From Sedimentisphaerales bacterium (GTDB lineage Bacteria > Planctomycetota > Phycisphaerae > Sedimentisphaerales > SM23-30): a stretch of 64,000 nucleotides of DNA. The notes under the pieces were generated by a model. That model was not told where the DNA came from. It searched no databases and worked only from the letters and a program-made list of their open reading frames with translations. The position numbers were made by a program, and so were the translations under genes. The stretch spans positions 1 through 64,000 of the forward strand of contig CAXXFK010000026.1 in assembly GCA_963663965.2 (NCBI GenBank), given 5' to 3'. Positions 4,993 through 58,652 of the stretch are shown one piece after another (positions within the stretch are counted from its first letter, which is position 1; every line of letters begins with the position of its first letter).

Positions 4993-6235
4993 TTATCTTT
5001 TCTTGATATCAAATGCCATCAGGCTTTCGCCGTGCCGAACATACAAAATGCCATCTGAAATTGCAGGATGGGCCCAGTGTTCACCGGATCCTTTGGTTAT
5101 CCTGAATTCGCTGACGATTTCAAACCCTTTCGGATCGGCCTTAACCAGCGCGAAATCGCCCGTCCGTTCCGAGTAGCAATACAGCATCCCATCGGCATAA
5201 ATAATCGGACCTTTCTCGTTATTCCAGGAGGTATCGTAGCTGAATGTCCCGGTTTTCCAGTCCGCGCACACCCAGTTTCCTTTGGAATTACTCAGCCAGT
5301 TCGATCCATAAAGATACCCATCATGATACAAAACCCCGCCATGATGATTATCGAATTCATTATTTCGCCAGACCTGGGTGACTTTCGTACCGGTCTCATC
5401 CAGCTTCAACAATGCCCCGAAATCGTTATAACCGCTGGTGACAAAGATCGACCCGTCATACCATACCGGACTCACCGGGTTGATATCTTTGCCTTCAAAT
5501 GGGTAGGTCCATAGCGTTTCGCCGTTACGAATATCCAGTCCCGCAACCACATCATCCACGATCTGGACTACTTGAGGTTTCCGGGTATGAGGCGCATAGA
5601 TCGCTGAACTGTAAGTTGCCTTTTTAGTCAATCCTTTACTCGACCACACCAGTTTCCCGGTTGTTTTATTGTAAGCCGCAACCGACGCCAGCGCTCCGCC
5701 TGGAGTACAGATTGCCAGATCACCTACGACCAGAACGCTTTCCGATACCCCCCAGGCCACCCTTCTGCCATTTAAATTGTTGATTGGTATCCGCGTTCCA
5801 CACCGGCTCACCGGTTATCGCATCCAGACAACACAATAATCCATTTCCACTCATGACATACAATTTATTTTCCGACAGGGTGGGGGTGGTGCGTACTCCC
5901 GGAAAACTCCCGGTCCATTCCGGCCCGTAAACTTGCTGCCAGAGCGGCTTGCCATAAATATCGAACGCGTAAACCACCCCATTTTTACTGTCTTTCTCCA
6001 TCCCGGTAATATAGACCCGTCCATTACCAATCGCAGCCGATGACCAGCCAATCCCCAGAATATCCGTTGACCAGATCATCTGTGGTCCGCCCGCCGGCCA
6101 CTCCTTCAGTAAACCGGTTTCATTGGATCGGCCGTCACGCAAGGTCCCGCGAAATCCGGCCCAGTCCGCCGAAAAAACTGGTGTAATGAATAAAAGCCCG
6201 GCTATCATTGAAAGGATAAAATTATTTTTTCTCAT
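4993..6235 (-). CDS. Secreted PQQ-like (BamB-type) beta-propeller protein, one frameshift near 5770-5790
   Basis: Signal peptide + ADWAGFRG..RDG.S.ETGLLKEWP, repeated W-docking motifs, C-terminal WAHPAISDGILYVR; ORFs 5720-6235 and 4993-5811 join. Confidence 0.8.
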
Positions 6236-51627: not shown

Positions 51628-51796
51628 TAATGAGCAGATTCTGGACTTTGGTAAACGTATTGGACAAATTTTTAGACAGGTTGATTAATCAAGATTGAAT
51701 TCTAGATAATAGACAATATAATGTTAATTGTACTTAAGGAACGAAGTGCTATAACCTGTTTGTTCACATAGAATTAATTGTTTTATGGAGACTATC

Positions 51797-54211
51797 ATGA
51801 AAAAGAAGCATTTTTGTGGATTACTGGTCGCTTTATTCGCTTTCACGTATCCAGTATCCGCCATGCAGGATTATCCTATTCAGCCGGTGTCTTTTACTGA
51901 CGTGACAATCATAGGGGAGTTCTGGGCAGATCGAATTGAAACGAATCGAAGTGTCACAATTCCAACTTCGTTTCAGAAGTGTGAAGAATCCGGCCGAATG
52001 GATAATTTTGAACGGGCCGCAAGAGTACTAAAAGGTGATGAGTCACTAACGGATCGTCAGGTGCGTGGCTTATCCTTTGACGATACGGATCCTTATAAAG
52101 TTCTGGAAGGAGCATCCTTTGGTCTGAGTGTCAAGTCGGAACCTGAGATGGATAAATACCTTGACGATTTGATTGCATTGATTGCATCCGCTCAGGAAGC
52201 GGATGGTTATCTGTATACAGCCCGAACGATCAATCCTGAGCAGCCACATGAATGGGCTGGTTCAAAACGTTGGCAAAATGTAAAAAGACTCAGTCATGAA
52301 CTTTATAATATGGGGCATCTTTATGAGGCGGCTGCGGCTCATTATTTAGCAACCGGAAAAAAAACGTTGTTAAATATTGCTATTAAAAATGCAAATTTGT
52401 TATGTAATACATTTGGCCCAGGAAAGAATCTCGATGCACCGGGACATCAGATCATTGAAATGGGATTGGTCAAACTTTACCGCGTTACTGGTGAAAAGAA
52501 GTATCTGGATCTGGCTAAGTTTTTCCTAGATACCCGGGGACCCGGTGATGGCGAATATAGTCAGGCCCATAAAAAGGTTGTCGATCAGGATGAAGCGGTT
52601 GGCCATGCCGTTCGAGCAACCTATATGTATAGCGGGATGGCCGATGTGGCGGCTATTACGGGGAATACCAGCTATTTAAACGCAATTGATAAAATCTGGG
52701 AAAATATCGTTAATAAAAAAATGTATGTCACTGGTGGTATAGGGGCTACCGGCAGCGGTGAGGCATTTGGCAGAAATTATGAATTACCAAATATGACTGC
52801 CTATTGTGAGACCTGTGCGGCGATCGGGCATGTTTATTTGAATCAACGACTTTTCCTGCTCCATGGTCAGGCTAAATATATCGATGTTATGGAAAGAATT
52901 CTTTATAACGGTCTTATTAGCGGGGTGTCTCTGGATGGCCAGACTTTTTTCTATCCCAATCCACTGGAATCTATTGGTCAGCACAGCCGATCGCCATGGT
53001 TTGGTTGCGCCTGTTGTCCGGGGAATATTGCCCGCTTTATCGCTTCGGTTCCTGGATATATGTATGCGATTCGAGAAGATAATTTATATTTGAATTTGTT
53101 TGCTGCCGGTAATGCAACGGTTACTGTTAATGGTAATAAAGTTGAGATTGTTCAGGAGACAGATTATCCCTGGAAAGGTAATATCAAACTGACCATAAAA
53201 CCTGAGACCGGCACGGTACCATTCAATTTCCATGTGAGAATACCTGGTTGGGCGCGTAATGAATGTGTCCCGGGAGATTTGTATTCTTTTTTACATGAAT
53301 GTAGTGAGTGTCCTGAGGTTAAATTGAATGGCAGAATAGTGCCTGACAACTTGATTGATGGTTATATATCGATAACCCGGTCATGGAAGAACGGAGATAC
53401 CGTGGAACTAGAACTTCCCATGCCGGTTCGCCGAGTAGTGGCCAATCGTAAAGTTGAAGCCGATCAGGGAATGGTTGCAGTTCAGCGTGGTCCGATAATG
53501 TATTGCGCGGAATGGCCGGACAATCCTGACGGGCATGTTCGCAACTTGATTCTATCAGATGAACAAGAACTGGTTGCACAATGGCGGGAGGATTTTATCG
53601 CTCATCGCAATATGATGTTGATTAGCGGAGAAGCAGACGCCGCTAATAAAGACGAAGCAGGAGAAGTCGTCAAGACAAAACAACAGCTGTTGCTGATTCC
53701 ATATTATGCCTGGGCTCATCGAGGCCGGGGAGAGATGGCAGTATGGCTGGCTTATCGTGATGAGGCCGTTCGGCCTTTGCCTGGCCCAACGATTGCATCT
53801 AAAAGCAAGTTATCCGCATCGGCAGGGAAAGGATCTCTTAAGGTGATCGTTGATCAGGCCGACCCCAAAAATTCCAGCGATCAGTCGATGGGGATATATC
53901 ATTGGTGGCCTGACAATAACTGTACAAAGTGGATTATGATGGAGTTTGAAAAACCGGCGACAGTATCAGGGACTGAGGTGTACTGGTTTGATGATCGCCC
54001 TCATGGAGGATGTCGGGTTCCTGTTAGTTGGCGTTTGCTTTATCGAGATGGTGATACCTGGCGACAAGTCAAGGATGGCAATGGGTATGGGGTTGAAAGA
54101 AATATATATAATCAAACAGCATTTGAGGCCGTAGCAACAGATGCCTTGAAAATTGAATTGCAACTCTCGGAAAGATTCTCAGGTGGAATTCTGGAGTGGC
54201 GAGTTGATTAA
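51797..54211 (+). CDS. GH127 beta-L-arabinofuranosidase-family protein with C-terminal carbohydrate-binding-like domain
   Basis: Signal peptide; F.D.D.YK.LE, HELY..GH, GH.IIE, GHAVRA.Y.Y, YCETCA, CACCPGN, LIPYYAW..RG. Confidence 0.92.
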   Translation: MKKKHFCGLLVALFAFTYPVSAMQDYPIQPVSFTDVTIIGEFWADRIETNRSVTIPTSFQKCEESGRMDNFERAARVLKGDESLTDRQVRGLSFDDTDPYKVLEGASFGLSVKSEPEMDKYLDDLIALIASAQEADGYLYTARTINPEQPHEWAGSKRWQNVKRLSHELYNMGHLYEAAAAHYLATGKKTLLNIAIKNANLLCNTFGPGKNLDAPGHQIIEMGLVKLYRVTGEKKYLDLAKFFLDTRGPGDGEYSQAHKKVVDQDEAVGHAVRATYMYSGMADVAAITGNTSYLNAIDKIWENIVNKKMYVTGGIGATGSGEAFGRNYELPNMTAYCETCAAIGHVYLNQRLFLLHGQAKYIDVMERILYNGLISGVSLDGQTFFYPNPLESIGQHSRSPWFGCACCPGNIARFIASVPGYMYAIREDNLYLNLFAAGNATVTVNGNKVEIVQETDYPWKGNIKLTIKPETGTVPFNFHVRIPGWARNECVPGDLYSFLHECSECPEVKLNGRIVPDNLIDGYISITRSWKNGDTVELELPMPVRRVVANRKVEADQGMVAVQRGPIMYCAEWPDNPDGHVRNLILSDEQELVAQWREDFIAHRNMMLISGEADAANKDEAGEVVKTKQQLLLIPYYAWAHRGRGEMAVWLAYRDEAVRPLPGPTIASKSKLSASAGKGSLKVIVDQADPKNSSDQSMGIYHWWPDNNCTKWIMMEFEKPATVSGTEVYWFDDRPHGGCRVPVSWRLLYRDGDTWRQVKDGNGYGVERNIYNQTAFEAVATDALKIELQLSERFSGGILEWRVD

Positions 54212-54247
54212 CGGATAATTGATATGATTCTCGACTGGAGTTAGTTA

Positions 54248-54275
54248 TTGACTTTTTGTTGCTCTGAGCTATAGT
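54248..54275 (+). promoter_or_regulatory. Putative sigma70 promoter of mini-rpmH
   Basis: TTGACT-N16-TATAGT, 80 nt upstream of ATG 54356. Confidence 0.55.
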
Positions 54276-54355
54276 GTGCGCCATGTGTTCTGTGTGATTT
54301 AGAAATGTATCTGAAATACAGACCTGAATGAAAATTGACAGTTGAGGTATAAGCT

Positions 54356-54442
54356 ATGGAAAACAAGCGAATCAGCCACAGGAAGAGATCCCGTAAAATG
54401 GGATTCCTCGCTCGTGCCAGGCGCAAAAAGAAAAGACGCTAG
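54356..54442 (+). CDS. rpmH: Short (28 aa) 50S ribosomal protein bL34-like
   Basis: MENKRISHRKRSRKMGFLARARRKKKRR*; S..KR.R..GF.AR core of L34; GAGGT RBS at 54344-54348; below ORF-track size cutoff. Confidence 0.7.
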   Translation: MENKRISHRKRSRKMGFLARARRKKKRR

Positions 54443-54910
54443 ACCAGCAAGATATTTATAAATTCAATAGTCAATCATCCAAATTTAGTATATATTTTCG
54501 TTCCATATATTTGTCCGCAACTTATTCTCAGCATCAAAAAGTTGGTCGGATGGGTATTTGAGATAAGTTAGTTCTGGTATTTATTTGTATTTTACCGGAC
54601 CCAGCAACTGTTAGTCTGATTGACATACAAGCGCAGTGTGATTAGTGTTGAATATTTATAACTATTTTTACCGTAATAGTTTATGACTTATTTTGCTTGC
54701 ATGAAGTCTGTTGGTTTTATGCTCGATTTTTATGATTCATATTTTTTTTCATTTCAAACTGGAAATTGTTTTGTTTTGCAATTATAAATTTCAATTGAGC
54801 GTCTTACAGTTTGCTATTAAGATATTATTCGTGGATTGTAGAAAGAGTAGAGACGTAGTTTTGTATGACCAGATAAAATGACGGGATCCTATAACTGAAA
54901 GGAGATCGCC

Positions 54911-56284
54911 ATGGTAGATATGGATTCAACCATTAAATCAAATCCTAATGACGCCAGAAAAGCCCCTTTACATCGCGTAATCGCAGAAAATCTCAGCCAT
55001 AAAATCAATAATGGCGATTTGAAAACCGGGGAAAAATTGCCATCCGAACGGCAAATCGCGCAGCAATACAATGCCTCACGTGCCACGGTCAGAACGGCTT
55101 TGCAGCATCTGGAACAGGAAGGCATAATTACCCGAAGAGACCGGCGTAGTGCTATCGTGACTCTTCGGCGTGATGTTAAGCCCAATTTACGCATAGCGGT
55201 CACCAGTCACTCCCTTATGCGGGCAATGCGGGTATTAAATGAAAAACAGCTATTGCCAGCCAGAACGCAATTGCAGGCGATTAATATCGCGTGTCCCAAT
55301 GCGGTCAGTAATCTGGTGACTCAGCCTGCCAGTGGAGCAGATATTCTTATTTGCGATATCGATTTTATCAATTGCTGGCGGTCCAATGACGGTTTGTTCA
55401 ATTCATTAAAGCTGACGGTTACTGGTGATGCTGAAATAGAAGAACAGCTTTTGAGTGTTTGTATGGATCAAGGCCGGCTTATGGCCGTTCCGCTGGGGGT
55501 TTCCCCGATGATTCTATATTATAATCGAGCCATTTTACAAGAGATTCAGGCATTTATTCCACAAGGAGACTGGCATTGGGATCAATTAATTGATTATGGT
55601 TCCAGGATTTCTAAAAGTGGCCGATTTGGGTTGCAAATGAAGCCAGGATTTGCGCAGTTAACATCATTGTTCACTGGTTTTGGAGGGCAATTGTATCAAT
55701 CCAACGGAAAACTTGCCGTTGATTCCCAACCTACCTTTGATAACGCAGTCCGGTTCCTGTGTGAACACATCGGCGGCAGTGGAATTATCGCCCCGATTAC
55801 TTCTGAATTGCCGATAGATTTATTTGCTGATGGCCGTTGTGGCATGGCGATTGACGGGTATGATAAATATACTTGTTATCGGGACAAATTAGGCGACAAT
55901 CTTGGAATTGCCAGTTTGCCGGGAGCCAGGTCTGATGGCCGCGTATCTCGAGCGATCGTAATGATGATATTAAAGCCTATGGAGGATCTGCAACCCGTCG
56001 AAGATATGTTACGAACTTTCTTAAGCAATAATGTTCAGTCTGTTATTGCAAGTGAAGGCTTAGCCGCACCAGTACGCAAGGATCTATTGACAAAAGATTT
56101 TATGGTAAATGCTGGAGTATCCTCTGAGATGGCTGAATTGCTCGTGAAAGAACTGGGCAGTATGAAACCGGTAGCACTGCCAAGTGATGACCGGTTGACG
56201 GTCGCAACGCATCAACTATTTACAGAGTTATGGTTAGGAGTGGATTGCGAAGAGAATCTTATCAAGCGTTTACATGGCTTATAA
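54911..56284 (+). CDS. GntR-family regulator fused to a sugar-binding (SBP type 1-like) domain
   Basis: I.NG.L.TGEKLPSER.IA..Y.ASR.TVR.AL..L..EG wHTH; LMAVP.....ILYYN..IL...P...W.WDQL SBP motif; no signal peptide. Confidence 0.85.
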   Translation: MVDMDSTIKSNPNDARKAPLHRVIAENLSHKINNGDLKTGEKLPSERQIAQQYNASRATVRTALQHLEQEGIITRRDRRSAIVTLRRDVKPNLRIAVTSHSLMRAMRVLNEKQLLPARTQLQAINIACPNAVSNLVTQPASGADILICDIDFINCWRSNDGLFNSLKLTVTGDAEIEEQLLSVCMDQGRLMAVPLGVSPMILYYNRAILQEIQAFIPQGDWHWDQLIDYGSRISKSGRFGLQMKPGFAQLTSLFTGFGGQLYQSNGKLAVDSQPTFDNAVRFLCEHIGGSGIIAPITSELPIDLFADGRCGMAIDGYDKYTCYRDKLGDNLGIASLPGARSDGRVSRAIVMMILKPMEDLQPVEDMLRTFLSNNVQSVIASEGLAAPVRKDLLTKDFMVNAGVSSEMAELLVKELGSMKPVALPSDDRLTVATHQLFTELWLGVDCEENLIKRLHGL

Positions 56285-56306
56285 TTTAAGAAGACATAAA
56301 ACTATC

Positions 56307-56333
56307 AAGGCCCGGGTATTACCGGGCTTTTTT
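56307..56333 (+). terminator. Intrinsic terminator
   Basis: AAGGCCCGG-GTATTA-CCGGGCTTTTTT. Confidence 0.82.
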
Positions 56334-56413
56334 ATTTAGGCGGTTTGATGACTTGATTTGTTGAACTGACTACTTTTATATAAATTTAATCAAAACGACC
56401 GATAAGAAAACGG

Positions 56414-56441
56414 TTGACATCTGACTCTAAGTACTTATAAT
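56414..56441 (+). promoter_or_regulatory. Consensus sigma70 promoter upstream of cyclophilin gene
   Basis: TTGACA-N16-TATAAT. Confidence 0.6.
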
Positions 56442-56453
56442 TCATATCATTAG

Positions 56454-58652
56454 ATGACTTGTCGACCATATGCTGAGGACTCAATCATGCTTGAACGACT
56501 AAACGATCCGATGATCGAATCAGATATGAATCCAATACGGATATATAGGAATCAATCCCTATCGCAAGAAAATACTTACTTGAAAAAAATAGCAGGGAGT
56601 TGGTGTTGGGTCTATATATTAAGTGTCATCTTATTGTTTAGGGCATCTTCGCTGGCTGATACGACCGTTGTCATCATTCATACGACATTGGGAGATGTTA
56701 CCGTTGAGTTATACGATGATAAAGCGCCAGTAACTGTCGCCAATTTTCTCAGTTATGTGAATGATGATTTTTATGATGGTGTGATTTTTCATCGTGTAAT
56801 TGATGACTTTATGGCTCAAACCGGTGCCTATACCGAGGCACTTTATGATGCCGATTTCACGGCATCAGATTTTAATATCAAAGATACTGATTTTTATCGT
56901 GAACCCGAGGATGCGATTGATTTAGAGATTACGGCAGGTTTATTAAATCTGCGCGGAACGATAGCCATGGCCCGGACATCTGAACTCAATTCAGCTACTT
57001 CACAATTTTTCATCAATGTGGTTAATAATTCACATCTGGATCCAGGCACCTCCTCACCTTATGCCGTCTTTGGTAAAGTGACCCAGGGAATGGATGTTGT
57101 TGACGCAATTGTGCAGGACATAGTGGATAATGGTAATTTTGCAGATGCAGAAGACTATTTTGAAGATTTGCCACTTAATCCAATCGTTATTAATGATATT
57201 GAGATTATAAGATCGTTTGATGAAGACAGTGCGGACTTTAGCGATGTGCCATATTTTAACGCAAAAGATGGTTCAAACAGATTATTTCGGGGGCAGGGAA
57301 CTCTTACCGGTTCTGTTCTGAGGCATAATTTTTCAATGATTGAGCGTCTGGACCCACCGGTTAAATGTTTGAAATGGTCTCAGGCTGTGGCATCGGATCT
57401 TGACATGGATGCGTCGACTCTGGTATTGGCAAAAGATACTGATGATGGATTATGGCTGGTTCAGCATATTATCAATGAAGGAACTGATTCAGAAGAAATT
57501 TTAGTGGATGCTAATTCTGTTGTGGACCTGACCCCCATGGGAGATTTGGCGGATCAAAGCATTTATTATCGGATGATGCTCGAATTGACGGTTTCTGATG
57601 ACCTGGAAGATCCTAACAACATTATTACAATCGGCGAGGGCGAAAATCTCTATATCGAACAGATTGCGGATTTCGATGCGGCATTATTACCTGAATATTC
57701 CGGCAATTTAGTCGAAGTTCGTAAGACCTATGGCCCCGTCGATACTCCCACTAATATTGACTGGAGTTTCTACGATGAGGAAAATGGGCTGGTATTAGAA
57801 TTGTTTGATGACAACGAAGACACTGTCAATGGTGATGGATGGTTGCTAAGTCAGCCCTCCGTACTTCCTAATGCCCTAATATCTGTCAAAGTGGACACTC
57901 GTGAACCCAATAGTATATATCACGATGATTTTCTGGTGACAGGTTTACTGGCGGCTGAGGCCGAAAATTTCGATGATGGCTATATTTATATTCGTGTTGG
58001 TATCTGGGAAACAACCATTAATACGTCAGATCCTGAATTAAATGCTTATAGCAATGGATATATCTATCAGGGTGAATTAGAGGATGGTTCAATGGCCAAA
58101 CTGAAGTTTGATTTGAAGCATGACAAATTCGTGTTTTATGTGAAGAGCACAGATTTATCGGGATTGGCTGAGCCGATTCAAGTTGAAATTGTCGCGGGAT
58201 CTTATAGTACCTCCGGGCAAGCAACCATCAAGGGTGGGAAAAAAATTCCAGTGCGATTAATGTCGGGAGTTGCGGATACGGTTTATCATGGCAGTTATCG
58301 TCGAATTATTGATGATGGTCCACATCACGATTCGATCACCCTGGTGGGTCAAATTGCGGCAGAAGATGGGTGGATCGATCTGACCGAAACAGAATTCGCT
58401 GCCATCTGGGATAGTAAAACCTATACCATTAGCAGTGGGAAATTTCAACGTGTCGGGAGACGCGATCGGTATTATTACAAAAACAGTTCGGCGTCCTTCA
58501 AATATGCCGTGGTTGACTGGAACAAGGGGGAATACAAAATTATCCTGGCAAGAACCAGTATTGCCGCACCGACTGAAGATCTTCAGATAAAAATCACAAA
58601 TAGCGCTGATACTGTATTATTCGATCAGACCATAGAAGTAAAAGCCAATTAG
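56454..58652 (+). CDS. Secreted cyclophilin-type PPIase with long acidic C-terminal extension (true start may be downstream)
   Basis: TTLGDV.VEL...AP.TVANFL.YV...FYDG.IFHRVI..FM.Q.G, RGTIAMART...SATSQFFIN, YAVFGKV..GMDVVD.I; hydrophobic signal ending SLA-D. Confidence 0.85.
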   Translation: MTCRPYAEDSIMLERLNDPMIESDMNPIRIYRNQSLSQENTYLKKIAGSWCWVYILSVILLFRASSLADTTVVIIHTTLGDVTVELYDDKAPVTVANFLSYVNDDFYDGVIFHRVIDDFMAQTGAYTEALYDADFTASDFNIKDTDFYREPEDAIDLEITAGLLNLRGTIAMARTSELNSATSQFFINVVNNSHLDPGTSSPYAVFGKVTQGMDVVDAIVQDIVDNGNFADAEDYFEDLPLNPIVINDIEIIRSFDEDSADFSDVPYFNAKDGSNRLFRGQGTLTGSVLRHNFSMIERLDPPVKCLKWSQAVASDLDMDASTLVLAKDTDDGLWLVQHIINEGTDSEEILVDANSVVDLTPMGDLADQSIYYRMMLELTVSDDLEDPNNIITIGEGENLYIEQIADFDAALLPEYSGNLVEVRKTYGPVDTPTNIDWSFYDEENGLVLELFDDNEDTVNGDGWLLSQPSVLPNALISVKVDTREPNSIYHDDFLVTGLLAAEAENFDDGYIYIRVGIWETTINTSDPELNAYSNGYIYQGELEDGSMAKLKFDLKHDKFVFYVKSTDLSGLAEPIQVEIVAGSYSTSGQATIKGGKKIPVRLMSGVADTVYHGSYRRIIDDGPHHDSITLVGQIAAEDGWIDLTETEFAAIWDSKTYTISSGKFQRVGRRDRYYYKNSSASFKYAVVDWNKGEYKIILARTSIAAPTEDLQIKITNSADTVLFDQTIEVKAN

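Follow-up and report, generated by a model that had tools for sequence, protein, structure and literature searches.

Our results support the conclusion that a 28-aa open reading frame (ORF) from an uncultured Sedimentisphaerales bacterium is, judging from its sequence, a genuine and naturally shortened rpmH orthologue, and the only copy of the gene for ribosomal protein bL34 found in its genome (G000). The ORF is 87 nt long including its TAG stop codon and encodes MENKRISHRKRSRKMGFLARARRKKKRR. It sits in an AT-rich intergenic stretch, with a GH127 gene on one side and a gene for a GntR/solute-binding regulator on the other (Table 1), within the window, by which we mean the whole stretch of 64,000 nucleotides that was analysed. 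What is new here is a short rpmH survivor within a clade that is otherwise without the gene; it is this place, more than the peptide itself, that makes the find interesting. This does not amount to a new system, and the case rests on one uncultured genome.

Table 1. Features in and around the short rpmH gene, in positions of the window
Feature	Position	Strand	Remarks
rpmH, 28-aa bL34	54356..54442	+	Sole copy found in genome; read-derived contigs identical
Codons 1–22, conserved bL34 core (R5, S7, K10, R13, K14, G16, F17, R20)	54356..54421	+	Spans predicted helices 8–13 and 17–20 (AlphaFold model of a full-length relative)
Codons 23–28, Lys/Arg-only tail replacing the T23..G26-R27 turn and helix 24–39 of relatives	54422..54439	+	Alignment and model of a full-length relative
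GH127 beta-L-arabinofuranosidase-like gene, upstream neighbour (context only)	51785..54211	+	ORF list, Pfam
GntR-HTH plus solute-binding-domain regulator, downstream neighbour	54911..56284	+	Family-conserved; tree marker tying the contig to the genome's lineage
Candidate sigma70-like promoter, TTGACT-16-TATAGT, 10/12 matches	54248..54275	+	80 nt upstream of start codon
Shine-Dalgarno sequence, GAGGT	54344..54348	+	7 nt before ATG; complementary to 3' end of the genome's 16S

The peptide scores below the cut-offs of the curated bL34 families. Pfam PF00468 is its sole family match, with 17.8 bits where 25 are required, and TIGR01030 (NCBIfam) does not match it, while a 44-aa relative passes (40.9 versus 37.65). 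We also built models from 34 full-length relatives, leaving the 28-aa peptide out. Among the 305,825 frames of the genome, the ORF obtained an E-value of 2.5e-8 with the N-terminal model of 22 positions (runner-up 0.4) and 1.6e-5 with the full-length model (runner-up 2.1). Set against the Sedimentisphaerales type of the family, residues 1–22 align without a gap and all eight core invariants are present; the start context and the MEN- N-terminus are likewise typical of the bL34 of the order. A full-length relative from the family matches solved bL34 chains at E 7.5e-8. For the same N-terminal motif, the records among the matches listed are mostly titled Sedimentisphaerales, Phycisphaerae, Planctomycetota or Pirellulales. 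The gene finder Prodigal has a minimum gene length of 90 nt, and the 87-nt ORF is below this limit. The exact peptide is missing from about 15 billion called proteins, among which all three of the longer relatives tested are present. The original prediction, made from the DNA letters of the window, had proposed a naturally minimised ribosomal protein that gene callers miss, and an orthologue that is below profile cut-offs and missing from called proteins is in line with it.

A second rpmH was not found in the assembly (94.6% complete, 5.4% contamination) with either PF00468 or our lineage models. The search for a full-length gene elsewhere in the genome, which had been proposed as a check, thus speaks for a single copy, and an alternative paralog, which had been considered as well, loses its ground. 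A split gene was rejected: the C-terminal bL34 model found nothing among the same 305,825 frames (best E 0.47), and the genome is without a separate C-terminal half.

One could still argue that the short form is an artefact, either of an assembly deletion or of a minor paralog that is accompanied by a full-length rpmH in unassembled DNA. The incompleteness of the assembly leaves room for this, some bins of relatives carry two copies, and both sequencing runs that support the stretch (X1 and X2) come from one low-depth sample, which is probably the source of the assembly (word depth about 3.5–3.8). Next to none of the stretch is present in a third run, X3. Against an artefact, two separately assembled Logan contigs are identical to the window across the ORF: record 1 of X1 covers all of 52500–56500 and record 5 of X2 covers 52500–55190, both with 0 other letters and 0 gaps. 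Because these contigs, from two runs of one sample, match across the ORF, an assembly deletion is unlikely, as the original prediction had assumed when it placed the ORF in an error-free part of the window; this description applies to 52500–56500, the sole stretch checked. Moreover, the ancestral rpmH locus is assembled in this genome and carries no rpmH, and sisters with closed genomes likewise have no rpmH. We consider an artefact of either kind extremely improbable.

How much of bL34 is left can be judged from a comparison set of at least 221 distinct coding sequences of the order's type with a start and a closed stop, which is limited by the search motif and deliberately enriched for short frames. 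In this set, 204 sequences encode 37–49 aa and six are longer; seven have 34 aa, and there is one each of 32, 29, 28 and 26 aa. In the 26-aa L135 and the 29-aa L170 a stop or frameshift is followed by a tail that is still intact, and likewise in L149, a 17-aa frameshift outside the count of 221. These three look like sequence errors or fresh pseudogenes. Behind the stop of our ORF, unlike in these three, there is no vestige of a lost coding part in any frame, and hence the 28-aa form is the shortest clean form seen. A frameshift origin was rejected, since neither frame +1 nor frame +2 continues in a bL34-like way.

The 28-aa peptide keeps all eight residues that are nearly invariant in 193 full-length relatives, the query excluded: R5 (190 relatives), S7 (193), K10 (193), R13 (191), K14 (179), G16 (193), F17 (193) and R20 (182). 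The part behind the core is different. In an AlphaFold model of a 44-aa relative (pLDDT 83.6), residues 8–13, 17–20 and 24–39 form helices, and comparison with this model shows the first two predicted helices kept and most of the third gone. Compared with the 37–49 aa of the Sedimentisphaerales type, the chain stops at 28 and is without the G26-R27 turn, the long C-terminal helix and the invariant R34; aligned collinearly, G26, which is present in 193 of 193 full-length relatives, is replaced by Lys. Scored with a position-specific scoring matrix (PSSM) over positions 2–20, the peptide equals or exceeds no more than 11 of 193 full-length proteins, and over positions 2–28 it is under all 193. 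The original prediction held that the peptide keeps the bL34 core and then jumps straight to the basic tail. Core and basic tail are indeed there, but the loss of an M.T..GR..L segment in between is only one of two alignments, which fit about equally poorly: the collinear alignment (truncation) scores −5.5 to −8.9 bits and the best shifted placements (deletion) −6.2 to +3.0 before gap cost. An internal deletion is therefore possible, but it is not favoured over truncation. The closest single sequence, L304 (...ARARRKKGRQ...), is collinear with the peptide at eight of the last ten residues and identical at 20 of 28 overall.

What remains is unusually basic at its end. Positions 21–28 contain seven Lys/Arg residues, versus at most five in the 204 full-length coding sequences. 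Net charge is +14 (full-length range 13–22, median 17; the two error-like short forms have +10), and the charge density of 0.50 is the highest in the set, versus a maximum of 0.49 in 193 full-length proteins. A stand-alone gene with such a charge density could be a repurposed one, a basic peptide derived from bL34 with another RNA as its target or a role away from the ribosome. If this were so, it would be hard to see why precisely the family-invariant residues are kept, and a full-length copy, which could have released the 28-aa form for a new role, was not found. Hence, we regard repurposing as very improbable.

The signals for expression are plausible, as far as can be told from the DNA, and are no proof of it. 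The near-consensus promoter of the original prediction is there, but it is only modestly above chance: when the upstream gap is shuffled by mononucleotides, 158 of 5000 shuffled versions reach 10 of 12 matches, and between 54000 and 55000 three sigma70-like sites of this grade are observed versus 3.2 expected. The predicted GAGGT ribosome binding site (RBS) is present ahead of the ATG as well. Its pairing with the 3' end of the genome's 16S amounts to −7.2 kcal/mol; of 1536 long ORFs 28% do as well or better, and of 787 random short ORFs 7%. No RNA run appears among the sequencing runs listed as containing this stretch, and the statement that the gene is apparently expressed could not be confirmed. 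An Rfam scan of 53500–55500 gave just two chance snoRNA matches far under their gathering scores, and the fold of 54282–54520 (z −1.13) gives no structured-RNA signal. The predicted 5' leader contains an imperfect hairpin at 54286–54325, within a fold that as a whole is not better than its shuffles.

Over its branch as a whole, the reading frame bears the marks of selection. Over codons 2–22 there are 7–10 amino acid differences between the 28-aa form and each of 16 family-type coding sequences, none of them at the eight core sites (p 0.015–0.0008). Relative to family relatives, pS is 0.64–1.27 and pN 0.28–0.36, and in a fully neutral simulation the eight sites and the frame were retained in 2 of 80,000 runs. 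These data argue for strong purifying selection over the whole branch, which is also the span of the tests, so that they leave the shortening undated. A closer relative might have divided the branch, but a pattern specific for the N-terminus had 0 matches in metagenome contigs, and G000 is alone in its genus. The basicity of the tail is the best hint of selection after the shortening.

The conservation might then predate the cut: the gene could be a decaying remnant that was cut recently, for example as a 3'-incomplete copy that moved here, and its product could be unused. Four informative sister genomes are without a detectable bL34, the peptide has the lowest family score over 28 residues and has lost the invariant G26, and no terminator-like site is found directly behind the gene. 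In addition, rpmH copies with nonsense mutations or frameshifts do exist in the order (L135, L149, L170). However, the RBS, the start codon and all eight invariants are intact in the 28-aa gene, and it is without a downstream trace of the lost part. Drift would also not be expected to favour a tail that is more basic than that of any of the 204 full-length coding sequences. On balance, we consider a decaying remnant unlikely.

The sisters are important for any reading of the short form. A clear bL34 match is found in 16 of the 25 genomes of the family, with lengths of 28 (G000), 32 (G018), 38 and 41–46 aa. G000 groups with G013, G005 and genus g5 in a quick RpoB tree with five outgroups (SH-aLRT 95) and in an LG+G4 tree of 21 full-length RpoB rows from the family, without G003, G322, G324 and G325 (UFBoot 97). 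A GntR tree of 21 rows, without G003, G005, G010 and G325, unites G000, G013 and four g5 genomes (UFBoot 100). No bL34 is detectable in the sister genomes of this clade. Four of them, among these one closed genome, are informative, namely G004 (1 contig), G297 (2 contigs), G323 (4 contigs) and G013 (95%), and in all four the ancestral locus is assembled and rpmH is missing; G005 and G322 (70–72% complete, marker gene not found) are uninformative for the absence of bL34. The gene for bL35 is present in all three of the bL34-null sisters tested. The closest relatives of G000 thus appear to have lost rpmH.

It is conceivable that these genomes, too, hide a miniature gene. Candidates for such genes were rejected: the 11 weak matches in 10 genomes without a clear match are all unrelated frames, and a loose pattern gave 11 matches in five sister genomes versus 17 in the control; seven of these were read, and none had a start plus the core. 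Weak family matches at L066–L068, L073 and L079 were judged to be noise, L079 with some doubt. L079 is a 26-codon frame with a GTG start (contig C133 of G002, about 5371–5424, plus strand) and a weak bL34-like pattern without the core Gly (E 0.57), which could be a decayed remnant.

The picture across the order is similar. A bL34 match at E ≤0.05 is found in 244 of 389 genomes and in 132 of 194 high-quality ones, a tally in which at least three near-threshold matches are noise. Six single-contig genomes (G004, G025, G131, G138, G145 and G166) look like real losses because the lineage-tuned model gave only noise there, which suggests that rpmH has been lost repeatedly in this order. The original prediction had offered hidden mini-genes as an explanation for an apparent absence of rpmH; this applies to G000 only and does not extend to the six single-contig genomes. 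Elsewhere in the class the N-terminal model matches 101 of 110 genomes and in other classes of the phylum 9 of 190, counts in which one unpublished genome, which carries none of our conclusions, is included and divergent forms may be missed by the model.

The usual arrangement of rpmH is within a dnaA-rpmH-rnpA-yidC cluster. The original prediction had noted that the 28-aa gene is solitary and not linked to rnpA. This is correct, as rnpA of G000 is on contig C17 without rpmH upstream, but it is no peculiarity: of the 75 bL34 loci of at least 2.5 kb, G000's own counted, none carries rnpA, so that a solitary rpmH is normal in this lineage. In most of the family loci inspected, rpmH follows a conserved gene for a protein of about 720 aa, which belongs to no clear family (weak NCBIfam matches below cut-off only). 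The 28-aa gene, in contrast, is elsewhere. In G000 a convergent gene is directly next to the gene of the ~720-aa protein (C4:27150–29315; L389:251–2416, minus strand), and rpmH is absent. Orthologues of the GntR/solute-binding fusion are found in 21 of 24 family genomes, and in several of these a cyclophilin-like gene comes next. None of the 21 relatives' GntR loci has a bL34 gene beside it. Since the usual locus of G000 is without rpmH, and so are the GntR loci of all 21 relatives, rpmH has moved in G000. There are relatives, too, in which rpmH is found in other contexts (L054, L010–L012, L019).

We think there is an even chance that the gene encodes a functional minimal bL34, vertically inherited, relocated, shortened and still working, which survives on the path to loss. 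Two kinds of observation speak against this reading. First, the sister lineages, going by their sequences, show that bL34 is dispensable. Second, the peptide is divergent, the invariant G26 is lost, and the best sequence matches (L304, L337, L261 and L294, 19–20 of 28 residues identical) are outside the collected family members. Vertical descent would also require that the gene was lost at least twice within the clade.

The gene might instead be functional but re-acquired: an ancestor would have lost rpmH once, and a copy with its own promoter would have been regained from another member of the Sedimentisphaerales and shortened during or after the transfer. With one loss and one gain, this history is no less parsimonious than one with two losses. 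In G000, G013, G004, G323 and G297 rpmH is missing from the ancestral locus, the present locus is without bL34 in the GntR loci of 21 of 21 relatives, and the origin of the top matches would fit a foreign source. Yet nucleotide identity to any collected coding sequence is at most 41/63 (median 35), so there is no donor signal, and taking the best of 221 matches inflates outside matches. Furthermore, rpmH is found elsewhere in relatives too, and losses are frequent in the order. A re-acquisition seems to us quite unlikely.

If the 28-aa gene is indeed a vertically inherited and working rpmH, it would be transcribed from its own promoter and then translated, and the peptide would lie buried within the 50S subunit, in the usual place of bL34. 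The N-terminal core (residues 1–22) would there make specific contacts with 23S rRNA, and the basic tail would act as a polycation and neutralise phosphates that the lost helix once covered. Together, core and tail could support 50S folding and 70S formation. In its clade, selection on bL34 would have been relaxed and sister lineages would have dropped rpmH, with this gene as the last one left.

Published work, in the portions of the sources accessible to us, fits with some of these ideas. L34 is non-essential in Bacillus subtilis, where cells without it are impaired in 70S formation and L16 is released, defects that a higher Mg2+ level suppresses (10.1101/300103); the suppression fits a largely electrostatic role of bL34. 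The protein, which is classed as a helix hairpin (PMC11354259), is mostly buried, early to join, and lost in "certain Clostridia and Planctomycetes" (Galperin et al., 10.1101/2021.01.31.429008). In tiny genomes L34 is often lost, and rRNA binding sites are not reduced there (PMC7782861); the accessible account of the Hodgkinia large subunit reports no bL34 density (10.64898/2026.10.18.759926). Similar to these lineage-specific losses (10.1101/2021.01.31.429008, PMC7782861), the order studied here has closed genomes without detectable bL34. A structural table lists Phe18, Arg19 and Arg29 as bL34 contacts with rRNA (PMC11711686), and with an offset of +1 the Phe18 contact is retained as F17 in the 28-aa form. 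At the Arg19-equivalent the peptide has Leu, a residue common to 39 of 193 relatives. The loss surveys, as far as their accessible text goes, score presence and absence and describe no shortened survivor among lineages of loss, and one of them dropped sequences of less than 50% of full length (PMC7782861). In the literature that we searched, with subscription journals largely outside its coverage, we found no report of a naturally shortened bL34.

The order does contain other shortened forms. In G018, a 62% bin, a 32-aa bL34 with a basic run at its end occupies the ancestral locus (L051:1498–1596). It belongs to another RpoB clade and seems to have shrunk independently, with a similar break after residue 22; here an internal deletion of 6–9 residues probably fits better than truncation. 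The 34-aa form is recurrent, ends immediately behind the basic terminus of the long helix, and is represented by seven distinct coding sequences (loci L130, L131, L211, L220, L246, L277, L311 and L322), one of which bears the NCBI name 50S ribosomal protein L34. Together with the G018 form, these show that C-terminal shortening to a basic run has occurred elsewhere in the order, and those inspected have no downstream coding vestige either. Unlike the 28-aa form, the 34-aa forms retain G26 and most of the long helix.

Taken together, we tentatively propose, with slightly less than even confidence, that bL34, a buried ribosomal protein, is being lost step by step in free-living bacteria whose genomes are large (43 to 34, to 32 or 28, to none), and that a working form of 28 residues, made of a conserved RNA-reading core and a tail of condensed charge, is a natural intermediate in this process. 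A break close to residue 22 would have arisen twice independently and would mark the minimal functional unit. Forms of less than 30 aa would escape annotation, and some reported losses may hide survivors. Genes this small are missed when presence and absence are tabulated from profile cut-offs or from called proteins. The order offers full-length, 34-aa, 32-aa, 28-aa and null states of bL34 among related free-living bacteria, and with this series one can test directly which portion of bL34 suffices for 70S formation and what makes up for its loss.

A few further observations concern unusual rpmH forms. A search with the ARAR pattern had one genome match, in a record titled Gemmatimonadetes. 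A pattern of the core plus a basic run had 10 matches; among the six listed, two are bL34 genes already collected and four are chance frames. The bins G470, G530, G345 and G022 have two rpmH matches each, which may be contamination, and in G470 one copy has a single TGA with its tail intact. In genus g311 (L124, L129, L147, L116, L119 and L127) the trend is the opposite within the same order: bL34 has a divergent core and basic C-terminal extensions to 50–58 aa.
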